Virus record (IMG/VR): IMGVR_UViG_3300020042_006393 | Location: 1-26,075 of that record | Direction: 5' to 3' (one strand) | DNA length: 26,075 nucleotides | Source: a virus | Taxonomy: Duplodnaviria > Caudoviricetes | Shown: positions 3 to 17,784 of the stretch, piece by piece | How positions within the stretch are numbered: the stretch's first letter is position 1 | How the letters are laid out: each line of letters begins with the position of its first letter | The notes under the pieces: model-generated | The model's input: the letters and a program-made list of their open reading frames with translations, nothing else | Databases searched by the model: none | Told to the model about the DNA's origin: nothing | Program-made: the position numbers and the translations under genes

Positions 3-287
3 ATGTTTGAGGCATTGCGTGAGGCAGTAAGGACAGGTTGTATTCGTGACCTGCCAATGATTATCTCGCAAGAATTAAGAGCATTCTTTATTAACGACAA
101 AGGGAATATAGATTATCCACAACACCATACAACACACGGTGATAGTGTCATAGCTCTAGCTCTTGCGCTCCAATGTATTAAGCAAGTAAGTCTTCCAACA
201 AAGAGCCAGCTGCCTGACTGGGTGGCGCAGGTCAAACTATCTAAAGCGCAAAAGAAGCTAAGCTATCAGAGTACTAGGAGATACTAG
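3..287 (+). CDS. terL: Terminase large subunit, C-terminal fragment (gene truncated by window start)
   Basis: 'ELRAF...HHTTHGDSVIALALA' resembles the C-terminal RNase H-like nuclease motif (E(L)xxF...HDDxVxALALA) of TerL; lies directly upstream of the portal. Confidence 0.75.
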   Translation: MFEALREAVRTGCIRDLPMIISQELRAFFINDKGNIDYPQHHTTHGDSVIALALALQCIKQVSLPTKSQLPDWVAQVKLSKAQKKLSYQSTRRY

Positions 288-382
288 AGAGGAGGGCTAA
301 GGCGCCCTCCTCTACCTCATATCCCCCTCTATACCTGTCTTGCTAACTGCATTATTTGAGGCACCCCCTTATTTTCAGCGAG
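282..382 (+). repeat. Dispersed hairpin/box element, copy A
   Basis: Stem AGAGGAGGGC(288-297)/GCCCTCCTCT(304-313), loop TAAGGC; ATATCCCCCTCTA at 319-331; ACCCCCTTATTTTCAGCGAG at 363-382; similar to copies at 8617-8720 and 17652-17766. Confidence 0.85.
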
Positions 383-387
383 CAGCG

Positions 388-402
388 TTAACATCACCAA
401 CA
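388..402 (+). promoter_or_regulatory. Putative phage late-promoter motif TTAACA-N7-YA upstream of portal
   Basis: TTAACA TCACCAA CA, followed by TTATCGAGG RBS; same motif upstream of other structural genes. Confidence 0.5.
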
Positions 403-421
403 TTATCGAGGAATATATTCA

Positions 422-1978
422 ATGGCAAGATCAGAAGCAGAAACTATCAAGTTAATTCGTCAAGTGCTAGGTGAGCATAAGGACCTATGGACGAATAGAC
501 TTGGAGATATGAAGAGATTACGTAGAGCCTATATGACCAGATTCTTTGAAGATTTAATTCCAGATGAGTCATCCCTACGTGTTGAGACTTCAGATGGATA
601 TACCTTTATTGAATCTTACATCGCATCCTTATTTGAAAAGTCTCCATCAATTGAAGCTGACTCTATGCAAGCTAGCCAAGCTGATGTTGAGATAGCAAAG
701 GCATGTGTCAATGGCTGGATGGCTGATAACAGGAAGGCTCTAGAGAATGGCTCTAGATTGGCTTTAATATACCCTATGGCCTTCTTCAAGATCTCACCAA
801 GGGAAAGTACCGACCCATTGAATCGCGTGGCTATAAGGGCACTGGAGCCTTGGAATGTTATTCTAGATAGAGATGCAGACCTATGGGAAGAGCAGAGATT
901 TGTAGCTCATCACTATTACCTACCACTTAATGATGCCACCAGTTTATATGGATCTAAGAAATGGAATCCAGTTTCTAAACCAGATTACTTTCAGAATGAA
1001 GATAGAGTAGGTAGTGGCAAGTTCTCTAGTCTGCCAAACGAATATAAGTATATCGAGGTTGTTGAGTTCTATGATCTCACCATGGATAAGTTATATATCT
1101 TCTCACCAAACTATAAAGTAGGTGGTGGATTACTAGAAGACATAAAGATTCCTTTGCGTAATTATGATGGCTCACCTCTAGTTCCAATTGCACCACTCTA
1201 TTACAGTCGTACTCCAGATAAACCAATGGATGGTTACTCAACTCTAGGTCGTGTATATGATCAGCTATTTGAGAAGAATATCATCAGAACATTCTGGGCC
1301 AATGCAATACGTAGAGATAGCCGTCAGTTCTTATACAAAGAAGGTGTCATTGATGAGGAAAGTTTAGCAAAGATTTCTGCGGGTCAAGATGGAGCAATGA
1401 TTCCAGTTGATGCAGACTCTCTTGATGGATTGATTAGATCAATACCTGTTGAGCCTTTATCAGCAAACTTTGACAGATACCTAGCCATGGTTGAATCCGA
1501 TATTCAGAGAGGTTCTATCATATCTGCCAACGTAAGAGGTGAAGCAACCAAAGCAACAGCAACAGAGGTAACAGCACTAGCCCAGTATACAGCCTCAGAG
1601 ATTGGACGTATGGCTAGAGAGCGTGATGAATCAATTGAAATGTTAGCTAATATATTTATTAGAATGTTGGTATATCAGCTAGAAGATAAGGAGCGCCCAG
1701 TTATTATGGTTGATAAGAAAGCTGTATTTGTTACAGCAGATAAGCTAGATTATAAACTAAAGTTCTTTGCACTTGACCAGGCATCAACACCTCTAAGTAA
1801 AGAGATAAAGAAGAGACAACTTGTTGAGCTACTTCCAATATTAGCTCAGCTTAATGTAGATCCAAAGGCAATCAAGGAAGAGATAATCAGGTCATTTAGT
1901 TTACCTGAGACTTTCTTGAAGGAGCCTGAGATAACACAACCTCCACAGGTAGCAGCAGGTGAGGAGATAGGACTATGA
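422..1978 (+). CDS. Portal protein (head-tail connector)
   Basis: 518 aa directly after TerL; portal-like segments 'LEPWNVILD', 'VVEFYD', 'RGEATKATATEV'; GAGG RBS. Confidence 0.85.
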   Translation: MARSEAETIKLIRQVLGEHKDLWTNRLGDMKRLRRAYMTRFFEDLIPDESSLRVETSDGYTFIESYIASLFEKSPSIEADSMQASQADVEIAKACVNGWMADNRKALENGSRLALIYPMAFFKISPRESTDPLNRVAIRALEPWNVILDRDADLWEEQRFVAHHYYLPLNDATSLYGSKKWNPVSKPDYFQNEDRVGSGKFSSLPNEYKYIEVVEFYDLTMDKLYIFSPNYKVGGGLLEDIKIPLRNYDGSPLVPIAPLYYSRTPDKPMDGYSTLGRVYDQLFEKNIIRTFWANAIRRDSRQFLYKEGVIDEESLAKISAGQDGAMIPVDADSLDGLIRSIPVEPLSANFDRYLAMVESDIQRGSIISANVRGEATKATATEVTALAQYTASEIGRMARERDESIEMLANIFIRMLVYQLEDKERPVIMVDKKAVFVTADKLDYKLKFFALDQASTPLSKEIKKRQLVELLPILAQLNVDPKAIKEEIIRSFSLPETFLKEPEITQPPQVAAGEEIGL

Positions 1979-2127
1979 TAAAGATTATAATTAAAGATGA
2001 GAAGAGCAAGGCTATGGAAGAGCTAGACCAGATGTATCCTGAAATGGATGAACCATCTGAGGAAGTTGCTAAGCCTGCAACAAGAGCTGATAAATACAAG
2101 TCTATGTGTGAAGAGGAGGAATACTAA
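1975..2127 (+). CDS. Small acidic hypothetical protein (50 aa, MIKIIIKDEKSKAMEELDQMY...EEEEY); not in ORF track
   Basis: ATGA overlap with portal stop, GAGGAG RBS, TAATG overlap with next gene. Confidence 0.7.
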   Translation: MIKIIIKDEKSKAMEELDQMYPEMDEPSEEVAKPATRADKYKSMCEEEEY

Positions 2128-2588
2128 TGCCAATCTATGAGCGTTGGTGTGCAAGATGTGGTGGTCACAAAGAGCTTATCCTAAAAATGGAGAACCGTGA
2201 CCAAGAAGTTATTTGCGATAGCTGCCATATTGTTATGACTAAAATATTATCTGTCCCAGCTTTTACTCCATCTAGTTGGGGTGCTGATTGGAGAGCTGGT
2301 CTGTCAGGCTCATCTATCCAGTCAACAGCATTAGGTAGACCAGTAGCTTCTCGTAAAGAAGAGGAAGCTATAATGCGTGACAGAGGCTTTGTACCTGAGT
2401 CTGATTTAGGCAGTCACTTTATAGATGACTTCAACGCAAAGCGTAGAGAAGCAGTTCTAGAACAAGATAAGGTAAACGCTACCTATCATCAGAACCTAAA
2501 AGCTTTTGGCGGAGATAAGATCAAAGCTATGACAGAAACATTTCCAGCGCACGAGTGTGTGTCTGGTGAGAAGAAAACAAGTTATTAA
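2127..2588 (+). CDS. FmdB-like zinc-ribbon protein
   Basis: N-terminal MPIYExxCxxCG...CxxC...KILSxP matches the FmdB zinc-ribbon pattern common downstream of phage portals. Confidence 0.75.
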   Translation: MPIYERWCARCGGHKELILKMENRDQEVICDSCHIVMTKILSVPAFTPSSWGADWRAGLSGSSIQSTALGRPVASRKEEEAIMRDRGFVPESDLGSHFIDDFNAKRREAVLEQDKVNATYHQNLKAFGGDKIKAMTETFPAHECVSGEKKTSY

Positions 2589-2600
2589 GTAGGAGATAAC

Positions 2601-3125
2601 ATGGCAATGCAAGATATAGCAGCTCTAAATATGTCACCAGTTGAAGATATGAAGGGCGAAGTTTCAAAGAAGATTGGCGAGGTAGAAAAGATGGAAGAAA
2701 GTGTTGGCATGGAAGCAAGTCCAAAGGGCATGTTTTCAAAGGGTGCATTAAACTCTTTAGTTAAAGCACACAATGCAGTCACTAGCATGTTTGGTATTCC
2801 AACTTATCCTATGTTCAGCAAAGACGAGACTGTATTCCCAGCAAAATTTACCAGAGAACTTTTAATGGTATCTAAAGCTGTTGAAGATGCGACAGCAAAA
2901 GAAATCTTAACTCCTGATATGGCTATCTCTTTAGACGGCGTTAGCAGAGACAGAGATCTTGCTGCCCTAACTGGCAAGCTTTCAATGTTAGCAAAGAGCA
3001 AAGACTTTAAGAAGTTCTTGCAAGAAGCACCAGATGAAGAGCCTATGATGGAGGAAGAAGCTCCAGTTAAAGAAGGTATGTCTGAGACCGAGATGGACCA
3101 GATGTTTATGGGCAGAATGTCATGA
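2601..3125 (+). CDS. Hypothetical head-module protein (Met/Glu-rich)
   Basis: 174 aa ORF, AGGAG RBS, coupled to next ORF. Confidence 0.7.
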   Translation: MAMQDIAALNMSPVEDMKGEVSKKIGEVEKMEESVGMEASPKGMFSKGALNSLVKAHNAVTSMFGIPTYPMFSKDETVFPAKFTRELLMVSKAVEDATAKEILTPDMAISLDGVSRDRDLAALTGKLSMLAKSKDFKKFLQEAPDEEPMMEEEAPVKEGMSETEMDQMFMGRMS

Positions 3126-3265
3126 GCCTCTATGAGAATATGAATAAAAGAAAGAAAGCTGGAACTTCTAGAAGCAAATCTAAGTCTACCATTGATCCAA
3201 AGACCTACGATAAGATGAAGAAAAAGAAAGGTGGCTTTGCTCCTAAAAAGCCAAAGGCAAAGTAA
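3122..3265 (+). CDS. Small Lys-rich protein (47 aa, MSLYENMNKRKKAGTSRSKSKSTIDPKTYDKMKKKKGGFAPKKPKAK); not in ORF track
   Basis: ATGA overlap upstream, TAATG overlap downstream; strongly basic. Confidence 0.75.
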   Translation: MSLYENMNKRKKAGTSRSKSKSTIDPKTYDKMKKKKGGFAPKKPKAK

Positions 3266-3507
3266 TGGCTGAGAAAGCTAGAAAGAAAGTAGTTAAAAAC
3301 CCAAAGACTGGCAGAAAGAAAGTTGTTAAGTATGGGCAGAAAGGAGCAACAGTGTCACCAGGAACTCCCAAAGGTGATAGCTACTGCGCAAGAAGCGAAG
3401 GCATAAAAAAGAGACTGCCTAAGTCAGAACAGAATGATCCTAACACTCCAAATAATCTCTCAAGAAAAAGATGGAAGTGTGCTGGTGACAAATCAAGAAG
3501 AGACTAA
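3265..3507 (+). CDS. Small basic phage protein (VKYGQKG...SYCARS...SRKRWKC type)
   Basis: 80 aa, Lys/Arg-rich; motif pattern typical of small phage head-region proteins. Confidence 0.75.
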   Translation: MAEKARKKVVKNPKTGRKKVVKYGQKGATVSPGTPKGDSYCARSEGIKKRLPKSEQNDPNTPNNLSRKRWKCAGDKSRRD

Positions 3508-3520
3508 ATAAGGAGAACAT

Positions 3521-4333
3521 ATGTTACAATCAACCGAGACTGTCGAATCAACAGACAACACCGAGGTAGTTAGTCCAGAAGTAGAAGCAGCACCTAGTGA
3601 TGCATTTGATATAGACGCACTAATCGCTGCTAATTTTGATAACGATGAGGTAATGAAAGATCCAACTGCTGAGCATAGGATAGGCAAACCTTATCATGAG
3701 GTGTTAAAGCATATCCCAGAAGACGGCAGAAAAGTAATTCAGAATCTAAGAGCAAGTTATACACGTAAGACACAAGAGCTTGCTACCATGAAAGCTGATC
3801 TTGAAAATCAAAAGACTGAGATGCTAAGACAGCAGAAGCTTATGACTGATAGCGAGTGGGCCAAGAATATAAAGAGCCTTGCAGATGATAGCACTGAGCA
3901 TGACATCTGGGATGAGGAAGGAAGGAAAGCTTCCATCAAGAAAGAAGCTGCAAAGATGATGTCAGATCTGATGAAGCCACTTCAGCAGGAGGTAGCACAA
4001 GAGCGTAGAGCATTAGAACTAGAAAGATTTAAATCAGAGCATCCAGATATGCAAGACTTGCGTGTTGATATAGCTGCCCTTTTGATAGAAAGATCTGATC
4101 TTAAACTAGAAGACGCTTACTATCTAGTCAAAGGCAAAAGATCAATTGAAACATCTAAGCAAGCAGCCCAAGCTAAAGTATCTGAAAGAGAAACAGCTAG
4201 ACAGGGTATTGCAAAGATAGCTGGTGGGAAGAATGTAGATTCTACTCAGCTTTCGGCTCCTCAGTTTAAGTCTGCTTGGGATGCGTATCAATATCACAAG
4301 TCTATGTCATCAACAGGCACCAACAGAAAGTAG
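3521..4333 (+). CDS. Putative capsid scaffolding protein
   Basis: Acidic disordered N-terminus, coiled coil with 'YTRKTQELA', helical C-terminus; upstream of MCP; AAGGAG RBS. Confidence 0.75.
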   Translation: MLQSTETVESTDNTEVVSPEVEAAPSDAFDIDALIAANFDNDEVMKDPTAEHRIGKPYHEVLKHIPEDGRKVIQNLRASYTRKTQELATMKADLENQKTEMLRQQKLMTDSEWAKNIKSLADDSTEHDIWDEEGRKASIKKEAAKMMSDLMKPLQQEVAQERRALELERFKSEHPDMQDLRVDIAALLIERSDLKLEDAYYLVKGKRSIETSKQAAQAKVSERETARQGIAKIAGGKNVDSTQLSAPQFKSAWDAYQYHKSMSSTGTNRK

Positions 4334-4439: not shown

Positions 4440-4514
4440 GGGCTGATAAGCTAATCGGGAAACTGGCGCCCTTGCACGGCGCACTTGAGAGTTCGATCCT
4501 CTCTCGGTCCACCA
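4440..4514 (+). tRNA. tRNA-Ala (anticodon UGC)
   Basis: Acceptor GGGCTGA/TCGGTCC with G3:U70 Ala identity pair; anticodon arm GCGCC-CTTGCAC-GGCGC; T arm GAGAG-TTCGATC-CTCTC; discriminator A; encoded CCA. Confidence 0.95.
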
Positions 4515-4632: not shown

Positions 4633-4947
4633 TTATTGTTCTTCTATATAGGTGTGAGTATCACAATTATAATATCTTTCATTGCGGTAGGAATAACATC
4701 GTTCTTGATAGAATTTGCTGTGATGAAGCTGTCCCATTTCCTTTTGTTCTACATATGTTAGAGGTTCTACATATCCTAGAGGTTTTACATCTGTAATATC
4801 TTCCCAGTTGTCATATGCCCAAGCTATGAAAAAGAGAATTGCAAGATAAGAAGGCAGTAGAAAAACTGTACCTAAAAGGATACACAAGACGTATATGATA
4901 TCTTTGATTACTTCGATTATGTCAGAAACTTTCCATGTAACAAACAT
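4633..4947 (-). CDS. Small membrane protein (104 aa from ATG at 4947)
   Basis: Hydrophobic segment IIYVLCILLGTVFLLPSYLAILFFIAWAY; ends next to the terminator; the longer start at 5154 overlaps the MCP leader and looks spurious. Confidence 0.55.
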   Translation of the reverse strand: MFVTWKVSDIIEVIKDIIYVLCILLGTVFLLPSYLAILFFIAWAYDNWEDITDVKPLGYVEPLTYVEQKEMGQLHHSKFYQERCYSYRNERYYNCDTHTYIEEQ

Positions 4948-5047
4948 TTGCAAATCCGTTTTTTGTGTGACGATCAAGAATTTTAAGAATTCCTTGGATC
5001 GCCAATATTTTAACCAGCTATTTTTGAGGCGCCATAGATTTTTCTGA

Positions 5048-5062
5048 TTAACAAAATCTCCA
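5048..5062 (+). promoter_or_regulatory. Putative late-promoter motif upstream of MCP leader
   Basis: TTAACA AAATCTC CA. Confidence 0.4.
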
Positions 5063-5219
5063 CATATGAAGGGCCTATCTCGCCCGCTATGCTGAACCTC
5101 CTGGTTACCGATAGCTAAGCAGAAACAACTCTTGGCTGAACCTCGAAAGAACACCTCACTAAGAGAGCAATCAAACTTTAGTTTATCATTTAACCAATTT
5201 ATATCAGGAGAATTTAATC

Positions 5220-6215
5220 ATGGCAATATCAAACGACTTGCTAAGCTCAACACTCTACTCAATCAGAGATGGAGAAGTTGATCAGCTATTTAGAAAGACA
5301 GCATTCCTAGACCTTTGTAAATCAAACGGCGGAATTGAATACGAAGACGGTGGTATCAAAATTCAAAGACCACTCACCGTCGTAGACCACTCAAGCATCA
5401 CTGCACTAGCAACTGGTTATGAGCCAGTATCACTAGCAGTTAGTGACGTTCTAAAGCCAGCTATATACGAATGGGCAGACTTCGTAAGTCCTATAGTGGT
5501 TACCAAACGCGAGGAAATGGAGAATAACGGTGAAAAGGCAATCGTAAAGATTGTCGAAGCCAGAATGAAGAACGTTATGGCAATGTTAAGACGTGAGCTA
5601 AACAAGCAGATCCTTGCTGGTAGCTCAGTATCTCTAGCTGCGCTAAATACCCTAAACGGTGAGGCAAAAACCACAGGCTTCCTAGAGGCTGGTGCTGCTG
5701 CTGCCGCAACTCAGACTAACATTGTTGGTGGTCTAACCAAGTCAACTCTAAACGTCCCAGGTTGGTATAACTCATTCAAGCAAGGTTCAACTGCAACAAT
5801 CGTTGCCGACCTAACCGAAATCTACCAGGACTGTAACCAGTTCTCTCCATTCGGAAACGTCAGCGCAATAATCATGAATCCAGCTACCTTCTCTGCTTAC
5901 AAGTCAGCTCTATTCACCAATGAGAGATTCATTGACTCCAAGGCTCTTGATGCAGGCAGACTTCAGTTAGCATTTGCTGGCGCAGTCTGTGAGCAGGATA
6001 ACGAGATGCCAGCTAACGCAGGTGCAGCAACCAGATTCTCAGCAATTCTTCTAAACTTCGAAGGTATCAAGATGGTAATGCATAGCGATGGCGACTTCGC
6101 AGTATCACCTTTCGAGCATATCTCTGGAACCACAGCAAGAAGCGCACAGCTATACTTTAAGGGCCAGCTTATTGCAGACCATCTACGTGGTTCTGGTATC
6201 ATGAGCGGTATCTAA
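5220..6215 (+). CDS. Major capsid protein (HK97 fold expected)
   Basis: 331 aa after scaffold; strong AGGAG RBS; biased codon usage; MCP-like segments 'GGIKIQRPL', 'IIMNPATFSAY', C-terminal 'GQLIADHLRGSG'. Confidence 0.85.
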   Translation: MAISNDLLSSTLYSIRDGEVDQLFRKTAFLDLCKSNGGIEYEDGGIKIQRPLTVVDHSSITALATGYEPVSLAVSDVLKPAIYEWADFVSPIVVTKREEMENNGEKAIVKIVEARMKNVMAMLRRELNKQILAGSSVSLAALNTLNGEAKTTGFLEAGAAAAATQTNIVGGLTKSTLNVPGWYNSFKQGSTATIVADLTEIYQDCNQFSPFGNVSAIIMNPATFSAYKSALFTNERFIDSKALDAGRLQLAFAGAVCEQDNEMPANAGAATRFSAILLNFEGIKMVMHSDGDFAVSPFEHISGTTARSAQLYFKGQLIADHLRGSGIMSGI

Positions 6216-6245
6216 TCTTAACACATTTTATAAGGAAATAATACT

Positions 6246-6743
6246 ATGGCTACTTCAACATTAATTCAGAGACTAGATCAATCAGCTCTAACAACTTCAA
6301 CTACAGTTCCAGGTGGATACACTGTTGTAACAACTCCAGATGTTTCAAACAGAACTCAGAAAGAAACCTTCCTTGCTGGCGCTGCCATAACAAAGGGTGA
6401 CTGGGTTGCTTTCGATACTTCAGCAACTGGCGCTGTAAAAGTCCTAACCGTAATTCAAGCTTCAACAGCTTTTGCTCTTGGCAATCCACTTGTTGTAGGT
6501 GTTGCACTTAACGCAGCAACCGCAGCAGGCGAGAGAGTCGAAGTTGTTGTATCAGGTTACTGTGACATTGCAAACGTAGCTGCCGCAGTTGCAGCAGCAG
6601 GTGTCGCTCTAGTAGTCGACGCTACCTTAGCAGGAAGAGCTGTTGCACTAGCAGCAGCAGATACTGCAAACGCATGCGGTGTATCACTAGCAGCAGCTTC
6701 AGCTGGTAACGTAGGCGAAGTTTGGGTATATAAGCAGTTCTAA
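6246..6743 (+). CDS. Capsid decoration/cement protein (DUF2190-like)
   Basis: Ala/Gly-rich; 'AGAAITKGDWV', 'VVGVALNAATAAGERVEVVVSG' pattern; follows MCP and precedes terminator. Confidence 0.7.
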   Translation: MATSTLIQRLDQSALTTSTTVPGGYTVVTTPDVSNRTQKETFLAGAAITKGDWVAFDTSATGAVKVLTVIQASTAFALGNPLVVGVALNAATAAGERVEVVVSGYCDIANVAAAVAAAGVALVVDATLAGRAVALAAADTANACGVSLAAASAGNVGEVWVYKQF

Positions 6744-6761
6744 TCTCTAACTGATAGAGAG

Positions 6762-6793
6762 AAGGCCCTGGAATTCCAGGGCCTTTTTGTTTT
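6762..6793. terminator. Intrinsic terminator after capsid operon, between convergent genes
   Basis: Perfect 24-bp palindrome AAGGCCCTGGAATTCCAGGGCCTT (6762-6785) followed by TTTGTTTT. Confidence 0.9.
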
Positions 6794-6794
6794 A

Positions 6795-7991
6795 TCAGTA
6801 TCTCTTCATTGCTAGCGGGATTCTTGCATCTATATCATATCTTGCTTTTAAGAACACCTCTAGAGAATCTTCCAAATACTTCTTGATATCATCAGTAAAA
6901 GATCTCCAGTCGGTTATTAAGAATCCATCAAAGCTTAAAGCTTGAATCTCTAGGCCAAATGCTCTACACTTACGCTCTAGAAGCTGGAGGCATTCGTCTT
7001 CGATTGCTTGAATTGTTAGGGCTAATCTTCTAGAACCATATTCAATGTGTGCAAAAGACTTTGACTCATCTTTAGACTTTAATTCTAATGCTAGAACAGA
7101 AAGATCCTTGTGTAAACCTTCTAGATTTTGTGTTATTTTTGGTGTATAGCCATCACCGTCTCTCCAAGCTGGTGATTCAAAGCTAGAGTTCTCTTTAATC
7201 CAGGTAGTAAAAGCGTTATTACCTTCTTGTTTATATTTGAATGGAGCTAGATAGCATGTCTGAAGAAGCAACTTCTTGGCAGGATCATTATCACAAGCAA
7301 AGTTCTCTTTTATCTCATCAATAAATAAAGGTCTATTTCCAGCAAGGAGGCTTAGCTTTGTAAGATCTAGTCCGTACTTTCTTGCAAGACCATCCATAAT
7401 AATTGGATGGCAGTTAGACATGTCTATCTCAGCTTGGTCGAATACAATCTCAGCTCTCAATACTTTTGGAAGACTTTGTAGGGAAGGACTTGTTGCAAAT
7501 CTTCTGCCATCCTTTCCAGCAGTTCTTTCATATGTCACCCAGTTGCATCCGTCTTCTTTGTTATAAGACATTGCATACATCTTGGCTGCCATATAGTGCT
7601 CAGGTTTTGCAAATAGGGATGGTCCTTTTGAAACTAGGTGCTCTAGCTTTGCAATGTTAACAACCTCTCTGAAGAAATCCTTTCCTTGTTCACCAGACTT
7701 TGGCTTCTGAGTTGGCTCGACAGTCCAGCAGGCCATCTCTCTTACAGCTTCCTTCTTAAATGTGTAGCCCATGGTGTATGCTTTCTTGACGTTGAAAGAA
7801 TAATTATCAGATACAACGTCCAAAATATTGGAAAGTTTACGCTTATAGTTATCGCCAAACTTTCTGTTTAACTCAGTGGCTGATACATAGAACGCATTGT
7901 TGTCATACATATGTGCTCTTTGGTTATTATCAACTTGGGCTTTCAATTCAAGCAGGGCTAGCTTCTCTTTGTTTGTGAATTCTGTGATCAT
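6795..7991 (-). CDS. Family-A/T7-RNAP-superfamily polymerase-like protein (TV-Pol-like), 398 aa from ATG at 7991
   Basis: GRRFATSPSLQSLPKVLR (cf. GRLSSxxPNLQNIP), motif A EIDMSNCHP, motif B AKKLLLQTCY, 'IQAIE', motif C LSFDGFLI; GGAG RBS 5 nt before ATG 7991. Confidence 0.7.
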   Translation of the reverse strand: MITEFTNKEKLALLELKAQVDNNQRAHMYDNNAFYVSATELNRKFGDNYKRKLSNILDVVSDNYSFNVKKAYTMGYTFKKEAVREMACWTVEPTQKPKSGEQGKDFFREVVNIAKLEHLVSKGPSLFAKPEHYMAAKMYAMSYNKEDGCNWVTYERTAGKDGRRFATSPSLQSLPKVLRAEIVFDQAEIDMSNCHPIIMDGLARKYGLDLTKLSLLAGNRPLFIDEIKENFACDNDPAKKLLLQTCYLAPFKYKQEGNNAFTTWIKENSSFESPAWRDGDGYTPKITQNLEGLHKDLSVLALELKSKDESKSFAHIEYGSRRLALTIQAIEDECLQLLERKCRAFGLEIQALSFDGFLITDWRSFTDDIKKYLEDSLEVFLKARYDIDARIPLAMKRY

Positions 7992-8043
7992 GTCATCTCC
8001 ATTTATTAGTTTGATATTAGTAGAAAATCGCTGGGAAAATATT

Positions 8044-8514
8044 TTATCTTGCTGGTGCAGAAGGATGGTAAATCTTTTTAGCATTAAGATAAGCTTGTTT
8101 TGCTTCCTCTTCGGTGTCATGATAGCCTAAAGAAATTGTCTTCTTATTGGCTGAAATTCGTGCTTGCCACTTTCCTTTCTTCTTATCAAAGAAACATCCC
8201 TTAGCTCTCTTTTGGTTTTGAAGATTTTCTGCTCTAGTGACCATTCGAAGATTAGAAAGTCTATTGTCGTATGTATCTCCATTGATATGGTCAACATGGA
8301 GATTGGGATCCCAATCTTTTAAAAATGTCATTGCTAGCAAACGGTGTAGACCACAAGTAGTCTGTTTACCATTATCATAAATGGAGCAGAAAAGATATCT
8401 GCGCATTGAACCTGCATGCACCAGCTTTAAAAGCTTACCAGTCTTATCATTCATAACTTCGCCGCTCTCACTGATGCTGTACTTGCCCTCGTAACCTGGT
8501 ATTGATGTGAACAT
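8044..8514 (-). CDS. NUMOD4-HNH homing endonuclease with C-terminal AP2-like DNA-binding domain
   Basis: IPGYEGKYSISESG (NUMOD4); LHRLLAMTF...VDHINGDTYDNRLSNLR (HNH); GKWQARI...LGYHDTEEEAKQAY (AP2); AAGGAG RBS. Confidence 0.9.
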   Translation of the reverse strand: MFTSIPGYEGKYSISESGEVMNDKTGKLLKLVHAGSMRRYLFCSIYDNGKQTTCGLHRLLAMTFLKDWDPNLHVDHINGDTYDNRLSNLRMVTRAENLQNQKRAKGCFFDKKKGKWQARISANKKTISLGYHDTEEEAKQAYLNAKKIYHPSAPAR

Positions 8515-8616
8515 ATTTTTTCTCCTTTTTCGTTGCAGCCATCGTGGCCACTCTATACTAGAAAATAGTCATAGATTTGCAACCGACCACAGCTTTTTTT
8601 TGAAATTATTTTTGCA

Positions 8617-8720
8617 CTCGCTGAAAATGAATAGGGGGTTCACGAAAAGAACCACCAATAGGGAATAGTAGAGGGGGATATATACAGGGATGGCGCCTAG
8701 CCATCCCTCCCTCTCTAGTA
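8617..8720 (-). repeat. Dispersed hairpin/box element, copy B (inverted)
   Basis: On minus strand: TACTAGAGAGGG-AGGGATGGC-TAGGC-GCCATCCCT-GTAT-ATATCCCCCTCTA...AACCCCCTATTCATTTTCAGCGAG. Confidence 0.85.
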
Positions 8721-8778: not shown

Positions 8779-10323
8779 ATGGATTTGCAGCAGATTCGAG
8801 AGAACATAAAGAATATCACCGACTACTCTCCAGAGTTGCAGGCGTATAGCAACCAGCTTGACGATATTATAAATATATCTTATTATAACTTATGGACCCT
8901 AAAGCGTTGGAACTTTGCTCAAAAGCTAAGCTGGCTTGAGGCGTATCCAGATATCACTTCTGATCGTGAGACTAATGGTGGTACAACAATCACTGCAACT
9001 ATAACAGATGGCCAGAGATTGGTTACATTCTCGGCTGCTGTTAACACTCTTATGCACAAGAAAGATGTATATGAGGGCAATATTATAGAGCTAGATGGAA
9101 GAGAATACACTATTCTCCAGGTTCTATCTACCACTACTTTGACAACATCAGAGCCTATAAGAATACTTGACGGTGTAGCCAGTAAGGTGCTAAGTAACTG
9201 GAGAGCTAAAGCTCGCTTCTATACTCTGCCACAGGATTGCATTGAGATATTAAACTTGCAGCATAGAGATGTTCCTGTTGGCTCAGGTGGACAAGGATAT
9301 ATTCTTCCTCCATATGGCAAGACTGTTGCAATGCTGCCAAGAATGGAAGAGTCAATGGGCTTAAGAGAAGACTATACTCAGACTTATGCAGAAGCATATG
9401 TTCCAGTTCCTCCTCATCAAGTTCCTGCTGCTGAAAAGATTGGTGTTGTTTTTAATGCTCAAAATGTACCTGCCAACGGATCTATTCCAGGAGCCTATTA
9501 CATAGAACTTTGCTGGTCTTTCGTTGATCCAACAAAACAAACTGGGCCATTGTCAGAAAGTTTTATTGGAGCAGGAGCCAGCAGTGGTAGCACATATTCT
9601 ATGCAAGTTAGCTTTCTAACATGGGATGATAAGCCTGTAGTTTCAAAGAACACTGCATATAACGCAGGCCCAGGAACAAAAAGATTCTTAGAGGGTTTAT
9701 CAAAAGTTCTATGGTACAACCAGAACTTTGATCCTGCCACTGGAACAAGATTAGGCAAACCTAAGTGGAGACAGGTAACCGTAGGAACATTGTCTGGTGG
9801 TCTTAATGTTCCATCTCAAGACACACCAATTGTTGCAGATGATATAGACGCAACAGTTAATATAACAAATATAACTTCATTTGATGCAGGCTCACCAGTC
9901 TATAAAGAATATGATGGCGTACACACAAGGATAAGACCTTATCCAAGAATAGATGCATTTGACTTCCAGTACTTTGAGGTAGCAACAGGTGCAACTCAGC
10001 CATTAAGATTAAGAGACTTCTTTAGAAGATTAGAGCTACGTTATTACTTTAAACCAGAACCTTTGATTGCAAAGACTGATACTCCACAGTTACCTTTTGA
10101 CATGCACCAGCTTATAGTTTATGGAGCTTTGGAAGATATCTATAACAAGTCTGGTAACTTAACATTAGCTAGTATTTATGCTAGAAAAATCAAAGACGCA
10201 ATAAAGCTGTGTGAACGCAGATATATCGACCATGTAGATATTGATGTCGTAAAAGGACAATTTGGGCGTATGATTGCAGGACCAATATTTGACCAACAGT
10301 CACTAAGGAATAAGAGCATATAA
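8779..10323 (+). CDS. Head-tail adaptor (tail tubular A/gp4-like) with large beta-rich insertion
   Basis: N-terminal 'LDDIINISYYNLWTLKRWNF' and C-terminal 'YYFKPEPL..TDTPQLPFDMHQLIVYGAL' are adaptor-like; first tail gene. Confidence 0.7.
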   Translation: MDLQQIRENIKNITDYSPELQAYSNQLDDIINISYYNLWTLKRWNFAQKLSWLEAYPDITSDRETNGGTTITATITDGQRLVTFSAAVNTLMHKKDVYEGNIIELDGREYTILQVLSTTTLTTSEPIRILDGVASKVLSNWRAKARFYTLPQDCIEILNLQHRDVPVGSGGQGYILPPYGKTVAMLPRMEESMGLREDYTQTYAEAYVPVPPHQVPAAEKIGVVFNAQNVPANGSIPGAYYIELCWSFVDPTKQTGPLSESFIGAGASSGSTYSMQVSFLTWDDKPVVSKNTAYNAGPGTKRFLEGLSKVLWYNQNFDPATGTRLGKPKWRQVTVGTLSGGLNVPSQDTPIVADDIDATVNITNITSFDAGSPVYKEYDGVHTRIRPYPRIDAFDFQYFEVATGATQPLRLRDFFRRLELRYYFKPEPLIAKTDTPQLPFDMHQLIVYGALEDIYNKSGNLTLASIYARKIKDAIKLCERRYIDHVDIDVVKGQFGRMIAGPIFDQQSLRNKSI

Positions 10324-17651: not shown

Positions 17652-17766
17652 AATAGGAACATAGGAGGAGGAGAGGGAGGGCTAGGGCCCTCCCTCTACT
17701 ATATATCCCCCTCTATATCCTACTACCTATGCCTATTTTGGCGAACCACCTTTCATTCTCTGCGAG
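17652..17766 (+). repeat. Dispersed hairpin/box element, copy C
   Basis: Stem AGAGGGAGGGC(17672-17682)/GCCCTCCCTCT(17687-17697), loop TAGG; ATATCCCCCTCTA 17703-17715; AACCACCTTTCATTCTCTGCGAG 17744-17766; outer stem AATAGG..CATAGG/CCTATG-CCTATT. Confidence 0.85.
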
Positions 17767-17769
17767 GCG

Positions 17770-17784
17770 TTAACACTGCCAACA
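17770..17784 (+). promoter_or_regulatory. Putative late-promoter motif upstream of giant protein gene
   Basis: TTAACA CTGCCAA CA, then TTAGCGAGG. Confidence 0.5.

Follow-up and report, generated by a model that had tools for sequence, protein, structure and literature searches.

Proteins of the TV-Pol family are recognised by an absolutely conserved arginine in a beta-hairpin, a thumb made of two antiparallel helices, an RxxxK motif in the fingers and the lack of an exonuclease; their genes are linked to D5-like helicases, resolvases, integrases or transposases, whereas linkage to nuclease genes is not conserved (PMC2579912). Stand-alone forms of 400–600 aa are described there, as are forms whose N-terminal helical domain is uncharacterised, and the activity of stand-alone enzymes of this type has been a prediction since 2008 (PMC2579912). 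Virophages carry TVpol-helicase fusions, as in Sputnik V13, OLV and YSLV1 (PMC3671162). The present analysis concerns a TV-Pol-like, stand-alone family-A polymerase gene (P0001, 398 aa, minus strand, 6795–7991) and three hairpin elements, A, B and C, in the phage record IMGVR_UViG_3300020042_006393. This stretch, referred to as the window, is a complete linear virus record of 26,075 nt with an estimated genome completeness of 85%.

Two kinds of described system are informative about how such a protein might act. CCPol, of the TV-Pol group, primes de novo with dNTPs when given a DNA-binding partner, and according to a 2020 paper every other member of the group was still uncharacterised (PMC7581432). 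The CCPol-MP system of SCCmec and the PolA-SSB primases share with the window protein an exonuclease-free family-A core, which serves as a dNTP primase together with its partner and prefers a repeat-containing origin (PMC7581432; bioRxiv 10.1101/2022.12.02.518924). In those systems the partner is an OB-fold single-strand-binding protein encoded apart from the core, and site specificity comes from a helicase, whereas the window protein carries its probable winged helix on the same chain and has no helicase in view; neither a PolA-SSB-type OB-fold partner gene nor a helicase lies next to the polymerase, whose neighbours are HNH and virion genes. Site-specific priming by element-encoded primases is described for ColE2 Rep and for RSF1010 RepB′ at ssiA and ssiB (PMC4538821, PMC10345425). 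Such primases recognise their own origin or priming sites, RepB′ two separate ones, and leave extension to host polymerases. They belong to the AEP superfamily and to plasmids, whereas the window has a family-A fold, a phage and at least three sites 8–9 kb apart; the resemblance is analogous, not homologous.

The window protein resembles TV-Pol in its minimal family-A core, hairpin arginine, two aspartates and lack of an exonuclease, and its nearest named folds are virophage helicase-fused polymerases. It is filed as TV-Pol-like, not as a strict member, because the arginine of RxxxK is missing. Other differences are that it resides in a small tailed phage, is flanked by HNH genes, has a head with a strand, a hairpin and two versions, and is accompanied by repeated candidate target elements; no D5 helicase, resolvase, integrase or transposase lies beside the polymerase in the window or in the full-length family loci seen. 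A further comparison is divPolA2 of barbaviruses and Vibrio phages, a protein of about 430 aa whose function is left open between repair and RNA synthesis (PMC11348598). It likewise joins a palm to an unrelated N-terminal domain, with no exonuclease and a variable neighbourhood, but its host phages measure 80–130 kb and barbaviruses carry a regular PolB (PMC11348598). Membership was rejected, as the family profile aligned with AUR84708 over only 44 columns at a probability of 39%; in the search against viral folds a barbavirus protein comes 49th.

The combination of a DNA-binding head, a priming-type core, an origin-like element before the gene, with its inverted repeat, AT tract and fixed spacing, further copies of that element on both strands and no other replication gene in view suggests that the 398-aa protein is a self-sufficient, site-specific primase-polymerase acting at the hairpin elements, a family-A counterpart of ColE2 Rep or RepB′. 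This reading is possible and falls somewhat short of probable, while a cognate link of any kind between protein and elements, be it priming, an operator, a mobile unit or an RNA polymerase, is fairly probable. Stand-alone TV-Pol-type proteins are already known; the new part is a candidate enzyme–substrate pair with natural specificity variants. Nothing on this phage polymerase family, the element or the paired versions was found in the literature covered, which left aside subscription papers and the supplements of PMC2579912 and PMC11348598, and the cited part of PMC10201439 does not mention TV-Pol.

Sequence and predicted fold of the polymerase

A 441-aa reading of the gene from 8120 was rejected, since it overlaps the upstream gene and close homologues begin at the 398-aa start. 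The core covers residues 94–398 (6798–7712, minus strand). The earlier note had read ordered superfamily-A palm motifs in this protein, and all five are found in that order: G162-R163..S170-L-Q172, D190-MSNCHP, K239..Y247, I327-Q328..E331 and F354-D355-G356. Across an alignment of 28 full-length homologues (364–438 aa, picked from protein searches), R163, D190, K239, E331, D355 and G356 are the same in every sequence, and H195, Y247 and Q328 in nearly every one.

A profile search of 1.84 billion representatives returned 19 proteins at E 1e-30 and 290 at E 1e-10. The stand-alone architecture is common to about 25 full-length relatives, and the next-ranking profile matches are mostly 750–830 aa long. 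When 16 long relatives were scanned, 11 carried DUF5906, VapE, D5_N, DEAD or Herpes_ori_bp, one carried PolB and four gave nothing. DUF5906 and Herpes_ori_bp are taken here to be helicase-type families, and since such families occur in 11 of the 16, the same core is fused where primases usually sit. Pfam and PHROGs assigned no family to the 398-aa protein, and sequence searches of the PDB with it yielded only a row at chance level (E 1.7) and a Pol I row (E 0.31). An Atlas search reached unnamed phage clusters (0.96) and, as a lead only, DNA_pol_A (0.76); residues 1–95 had no match in Atlas. Whole-record searches, run without a positive control, found the polymerase family in none of four and none of five related fragments.

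The AlphaFold2 model (mean pLDDT 91, pTM 0.84) predicts with high confidence that the protein has a family-A polymerase fold. Against a database of 48,161 solved chains, the top matches are Pol theta (Z 15.7, rmsd 3.3, 263 residues aligned) and Klenow (Z 14.9, rmsd 3.7, 265 aligned); the leading eight are family-A DNA polymerases (Z 15.7 to 12.0), and the top 17 rows are all family-A DNA polymerases or T7-type RNA polymerases. RNA polymerases share the superfamily fold but score lower (mitochondrial RNAP 11.5, T7 RNAP 10.2, N4 mini-vRNAP 7.2, N4 RNAPII 6.3), and the modelled fold is nearer DNA polymerases than T7-type RNA polymerases. A search of a library of predicted viral structures placed a 400-aa phage protein first, itself uncharacterised. 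The first row named PolA (5.5e-7) is outranked both by the Zamilon virus DNA replication protein (E 2.4e-12), which we take to be a TVpol-helicase fusion, and by the Qinghai Lake virophage helicase/primase/polymerase (E 1.4e-10). The polymerase palm fold that the earlier note had proposed to check against Pol A, T7 RNAP and TV-Pol is thus present in the model, and the TV-Pol-like kinship it had named agrees with these rankings.

In the model the catalytic aspartates D190 and D355 lie on or beside palm strands 187–191 and 349–359, and R163 sits between strands 149–156 and 164–166, a beta-hairpin. Helices 113–121 and 130–142 precede that hairpin, inside the region aligned to Pol I, and are candidates for the two-helix thumb. 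A 90-aa head and the core fill the 398 residues with no room for an exonuclease or helicase domain, in keeping with what the earlier note had read. Residues 1–90 (7722–7991, minus strand) are probably a separate domain, a winged helix, to judge from the modelled helix-strand-helix-helix-hairpin-helix topology. They match the MukE-MukF entry 3rpu_A at Z 5.5; Foldseek gave a best E of 0.19 and none at E 0.001, its rows being mostly what we take to be DNA-binding proteins of winged-helix type.

The residue at the steric gate, where a small one would admit ribonucleotides, bears on the RNA-polymerase reading. Pol I carries the discriminating residue E710 there, and CCPol keeps its equivalent (PMC7581432). 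The window polymerase family has a histidine, the nearly invariant His195, five residues after D190. His195 is presumably in register with E710; T7 RNAP has a glycine at the steric-gate position.

Hairpin elements and the two versions of head and box

The three elements are real. The 13-mer ATATCCCCCTCTA is exact in three window places only (319 plus, 8669 minus and 17703 plus), and in shuffled controls that allowed two mismatches the mean was 0.54 occurrences, three being reached in 2 of 100. Each copy consists of a purine-rich lead, a perfect stem of 9–11 bp with a TAGG-like loop, an AT-rich tract with the box, and a second box 57 nt past the stem. Element A (281–384, plus strand), between the terminase stop and the portal gene, has a 10-bp hairpin at 288–313, its box at 319–331 and its second box at 371–382. 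Element B (8616–8716, minus strand) has a 9-bp hairpin at 8686–8708 and boxes at 8669–8681 and 8617–8628, and element C (17665–17767, plus strand), before the gene of a 2162-aa protein, an 11-bp hairpin at 17672–17697 and boxes at 17703–17715 and 17755–17766. The copies are spaced about 8.4 and 9.0 kb apart, on both strands.

Comparison of 11 copies gave nine distinct stems, eight of them uninterrupted over 9–11 Watson-Crick pairs and the ninth with seven pairs and an inner mismatch; the counting script takes Watson-Crick runs only, and the informative point is that length is kept despite changed sequence. The distance from stem to second box is 54–58 nt in all ten copies that reach it. No G-T pair occurs within or at the ends of the stems, which would make them more DNA-like than RNA-like. 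RNA folding z-scores of the elements are −2.7 to −2.9; Rfam matched only the tRNA and, below threshold, the terminator, so the elements are no catalogued RNA.

A profile built from eight copies was run on 63 sequences (485 kb) and, its training copies and duplicates aside, found one new copy, at site C of the relative G005 (43 bits; next best 9.4 and 7.0). It then found another at site B of that record (57 bits, pointing off the contig end); shuffles scored at most 7.4. The proteins of G005 that were compared are 62–81% identical to the window's. Element B holds the same place and orientation in L044, L052 and G005; variants of A occur in L007, L008 and L009, and variants of C in L052 and L063. 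B points at the polymerase gene in the three genomes of three that show both, and directly so in L052. In the window, copy B lies upstream of the polymerase gene in the same orientation, as the earlier note had it, but is not adjacent: an HNH gene that the note did not mention intervenes. In ten relatives found via portal or capsid the slot is empty, the capsid or cement gene running straight into the adaptor gene, and element B is absent from all ten; site A, visible in six, and site C, visible in one record, are likewise element-free. Thirteen other relatives, in which only site A is visible, lack the element too.

The head of the polymerase and the boxes of the elements each come in two swappable versions, which on sequence comparison appear to be paired. 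The dimorphic head block, residues 37–86 (7734–7883, minus strand), takes in the predicted helix-turn-helix and its wing. Within this block L044 departs from the window at 19 of 50 residues, against 23 of 348 elsewhere. Among 20 close proteins the window block recurs letter for letter in eight and the other version in 12, and the window block is retained exactly even at 90% core identity. In a cluster about 70% identical in the core, a version-1-like helix is present in 12 of 12, and P0005 is intermediate. A skip over 7750–7879 in two of four mapped runs would fit the second head version.

Of the two box types, one contains a C run; the other has a longer AT tract with a short palindrome inside it. 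The window and L007 are 52% identical in the hairpin and box of site A, between flanks that are 98.6–100% identical, and box type differs at the same site between 99%-identical strains. Copies inside a genome share their type (three in the window, two in L052 and, more loosely, two in G005), and across strains sites A and B have box versions in common. Version-1 heads go with CCCC-type boxes in the window and L052, and in L044 a version-2 head goes with the other type; the versions are concordant in three of three linked genomes. Between the window and L044 both head and box diverge while the intervening HNH gene is about 99% identical.

Some observations on further hairpins stand apart from these comparisons. 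On a contig of 8,351 nt in run X15, a piece like 8623–8681, the core of element B, is joined ahead of window position 1, a hint that the early region outside the window may hold a fourth copy. A C-like hairpin continues into the tail of A in run X6. Element-free relatives carry other hairpin-rich inserts in the same terminase–portal gap (L015 3450–3640, L019 565–823 and L013 100–290), with GCGAAGC- or GCGTAGC-like loops, which are possibly analogous signals. That L013 and G005 are the same genome was considered and rejected, since they have no blastn overlap.

Candidate functions of the polymerase and its elements

If the protein is a site-specific primase-polymerase, its N-terminal domain would bind the AT-rich box beside the inverted repeat, upon which the AT tract would melt and the repeat extrude as a DNA hairpin. 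The core would then lay down and extend a primer, probably with dNTPs, before host enzymes take over. Copies on both strands would let priming start at several places, and a protein bound at B may also lower expression of the polymerase gene itself. The two versions would act as specificity groups, as with plasmid Rep–origin pairs, and the HNH genes may be read as homing passengers. A broader proposal is one-protein replication initiation in small tailed phages, in which a winged helix and a minimal family-A core would use dispersed hairpin origins on both strands with no phage helicase or primase, and head and origin would be exchanged in step as specificity cassettes, giving incompatibility groups among co-infecting strains; as a whole this proposal is doubtful. 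The locus pairs a 398-aa candidate enzyme with candidate natural substrates and a built-in specificity control of two heads and two boxes. If the reading is right, it would show how a family-A core primes alone at a defined site, explain how replication starts in 30-kb phages with no visible replication module, and provide a very small site-directed polymerase.

Several results weigh against a site-specific primase-polymerase. Given two types, concordance in three of three genomes arises by chance about one time in four. A third, unrelated block, the second half of the cement gene (window 6430–6729), also diverges between the window and L044, and the strains are therefore mosaic anyway. The boundaries of the head block were set with the data already in view, so its Fisher p of 1.5e-8 is overstated, and some of the 20 close proteins are probably repeat assemblies of one and the same strain. 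The boxes within a genome could also be made alike by gene conversion between copies, with no protein involved. The winged helix, which the earlier note had suggested for ~100 aa, fits the topology over residues 1–90, but its fold match is not statistically significant. Asn235 stands where the RxxxK arginine is expected (N235xxxK239), an arginine kept in 19 of the 28 aligned relatives as counted by eye, and Y247 is followed by leucine instead of glycine; these two losses could reduce activity. 

Distribution and setting add to these points. Co-occurrence of element and gene is confined to one clade and is explained equally well by shared descent. Contigs of four distant polymerase homologues (L004 = L036, L050, L043 and L055; 30–39% identity, 1.9–9.6 kb) have no element and no GC-rich perfect hairpin of at least 9 bp. 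The genome G001, an estimated 84% complete, has no polymerase-family match, so phages of the wider group may do without the polymerase gene; the part missing from G001 lies between terminase and capsid, where L055 carries its polymerase gene. No helicase partner is visible, and no helicase, primase or second polymerase family matched among the 22 window ORFs (Pfam and PHROGs), with ∼15% of the genome outside the window. A and C directly precede promoter-like motifs of structural genes, an arrangement that fits regulation as well as replication.

The strongest alternative is that the elements have nothing to do with the polymerase, being sites for a host factor or the phage's sigma-70 region-4 protein or RNA signals in read-through transcripts, and that the polymerase is an accessory of the same clade for repair or gap filling. 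This is rather unlikely. The restriction to one clade of mosaic strains, the element-free distant homologues, the sigma-70 region-4 ORF in every group phage seen upstream of the terminase and the other hairpin-rich inserts at site A in L013, L015 and L019 all suit it, as do the orientation of A and C in the sense of the late transcript and the folding scores given above. It accounts less well for B, which stands before the gene in three of three genomes and is gone along with it in ten of ten, for the concordant block swaps of head and box in three of three, and for stems whose lack of G-T pairs would be more DNA-like. The cognate link suggested in the earlier note is accordingly circumstantial: one-clade co-occurrence and allele concordance speak for it, and the distant homologues that lack the element speak against it. 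The three elements that the note had named are confirmed by their exact 13-mer, perfect stems and fixed spacing, and the co-occurrence check it had suggested gave a mixed answer, the element vanishing with the gene in the empty-slot relatives but also missing beside the distant polymerases.

The elements could instead be cognate operators, at which the winged helix represses or activates downstream promoter-like motifs (its own operon at B, the portal gene at A, the ejection-protein gene at C) while the core works elsewhere. Each of the three copies is followed at once, in the same sense, by a promoter-like motif or a gene start, and discrete head versions are reminiscent of repressor immunity groups. 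A TTAACA promoter-like motif lies just past element A (388–393, plus strand) and recurs at 17770 after C and, with no preceding element, at 6218, 8745 and 14826; it is found within 60 nt upstream of five of 18 plus-strand starts, at about 0.057 expected for each. TTGACA occupies the same places in element-free relatives, and by its distribution the TTAACA motif is a feature separate from the elements. A sigma-70 promoter scan was at chance level (43 against 42.9). At about 100 nt, with a hairpin and a fixed 54–58 nt spacer, the element is more than an operator needs; the late promoter-like motifs of the cement, adaptor and 14859 genes have no element; and the catalytic residues are invariant. 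An operator role is unlikely.

A third account takes the HNH and polymerase genes as a selfish mobile cassette: the HNH would make a nick at which the polymerase would begin copying, and the elements would be ends or scars of the cassette. An HNH gene directly adjoins the polymerase gene in five of six loci with both flanks visible, and a GIY-YIG gene is nearby in the sixth; the polymerase gene takes at least three positions in the phage group, and box versions are common to sites A and B across strains. The adjacent HNH proteins, though, are only 36–40% identical to the window's, apart from the near-identical one of L044, and lie upstream or downstream. HNH genes also occur in relatives with no polymerase in view (L026, L027, L034 and G001), the other end of the cassette carries no element, and sites B and C are fixed in position at 62–81% protein identity. 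The earlier note had suggested a mobile unit that seeded the copies; copies that hold their positions over 62–99% divergence, beside HNH genes that are mutually unrelated, make this quite improbable.

Least favoured, and very improbable, is a reading with the elements as hairpin promoters of a miniature single-subunit RNA polymerase, an enzyme type that the earlier note had also put forward: it has in its favour the shared superfamily (mitochondrial and T7 RNAP at Z 11.5 and 10.2), co-oriented elements upstream of genes and the RNA-polymerase option raised for the similarly built divPolA2 (PMC11348598), and against it the higher rank of DNA polymerases with N4 RNAPII at just Z 6.3, a bulky His195 at what would be the steric gate, the lack of an element at the capsid, cement and adaptor genes, and TTGACA-type late motifs that serve the same genes in element-free relatives. 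Hairpin promoters are used by the N4 virion RNAP. The large promoter-binding N-terminal region of T7 and N4 RNAPs presumably has no counterpart in the 398-aa protein.

Gene neighbourhood and phage group

Searches of 22 ORFs against Pfam and PHROGs show the window to be a podovirus-type morphogenesis module. It opens with the tail of the terminase gene, which ends before element A, followed by the portal (422–1978, plus strand), tRNA-Ala(TGC) at 4440–4514, major capsid (5220–6215) and cement (6246–6743) genes; scaffold, nozzle-like and large ejection-protein genes are probable from position and weak matches. The polymerase gene lies antisense between the cement gene and the adaptor gene, which starts at 8779, and is thus inserted in the morphogenesis operon as first described. 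A terminator-like hairpin (6759–6788, plus strand) marks the convergence of the cement and polymerase genes. Between the polymerase gene and element B lies the gene of a 156-aa NUMOD4-HNH-AP2 endonuclease (8044–8514, minus strand; Pfam E 4.8e-12).

A motif scan of metagenome contigs gave 26 stretches: six stand-alone members, nine palm-only, one weak and ten with no match. L044 (89% identity) has the layout of the window, and L052 (70%) carries the polymerase gene in the same slot with a different HNH gene downstream. In L050 and L004 = L036 (38–39%, probably one lineage) the gene is co-directional and ahead of a sigma-70 region-4 gene, after which L004 continues with terminase and portal. It is antisense and next to the scaffold gene in L055 (30%), and near a GIY-YIG gene and a tRNA-like stretch in L043 (31%). 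The polymerase gene belongs to the phage group yet changes place.

All 20 public runs (19 studies) that contain the window stretch are labelled as freshwater or lake metagenomes, and no RNA dataset containing it is listed. A motif scan of 185,579 genomes found seven stretches, one with a palm-only match and none with the element. GenBank phages gave no portal relative and, by tblastn with two polymerase-family members, no significant match and none over the full length; virus-collection scans with the polymerase protein or its first alignment gave no relative, and a scan with the two-box pattern of the element gave no match in a collection from which very near records may be absent.

Several features vary or stand out among the relatives. 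In L006 and L009, strains at 99% and 93%, a different sequence stands in for the body of the tRNA while keeping its TGC anticodon and near-identical flanks, a further block swap; in the window this tRNA is preceded by a perfect TTGACA-16-TATAAT motif. A minus-strand membrane-like ORF between scaffold and capsid (window 4633–5220, L006 4291–5131) has an extra 270 nt in some of the 99% strains and not in others, and the capsid gene is preceded by a leader that looks structured. Short lysine-rich ORFs ahead of the scaffold are present in some close strains and missing from others (window 3125–3520, L008 3389–3540, L009 4017–4168). In L052 the space from element B to the adaptor gene holds an inserted endonuclease VII-type gene (3391–3732), encoded opposite to the polymerase. 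Across the group a conserved, stand-alone sigma-70 region-4 protein is encoded ahead of the small terminase (L007 541–852, L004 993–1310 and others) and is a candidate reader of the TTGACA/TTAACA motifs that stand in front of late genes. The relative L020 has in its early region a VapE helicase (E 4.7e-77) adjoining an ORF with no Pfam match that is primase-like by its motifs; the two overlap in different frames (1260–3592) and are possibly a single frameshifted gene. One or several methyltransferase-like ORFs (DPPW/DPPY by eye) occupy the terminase–portal gap in 48%-identity relatives (L022 2942–3600, L024 754–2099 and L023), and the gap is therefore an insertion hotspot.

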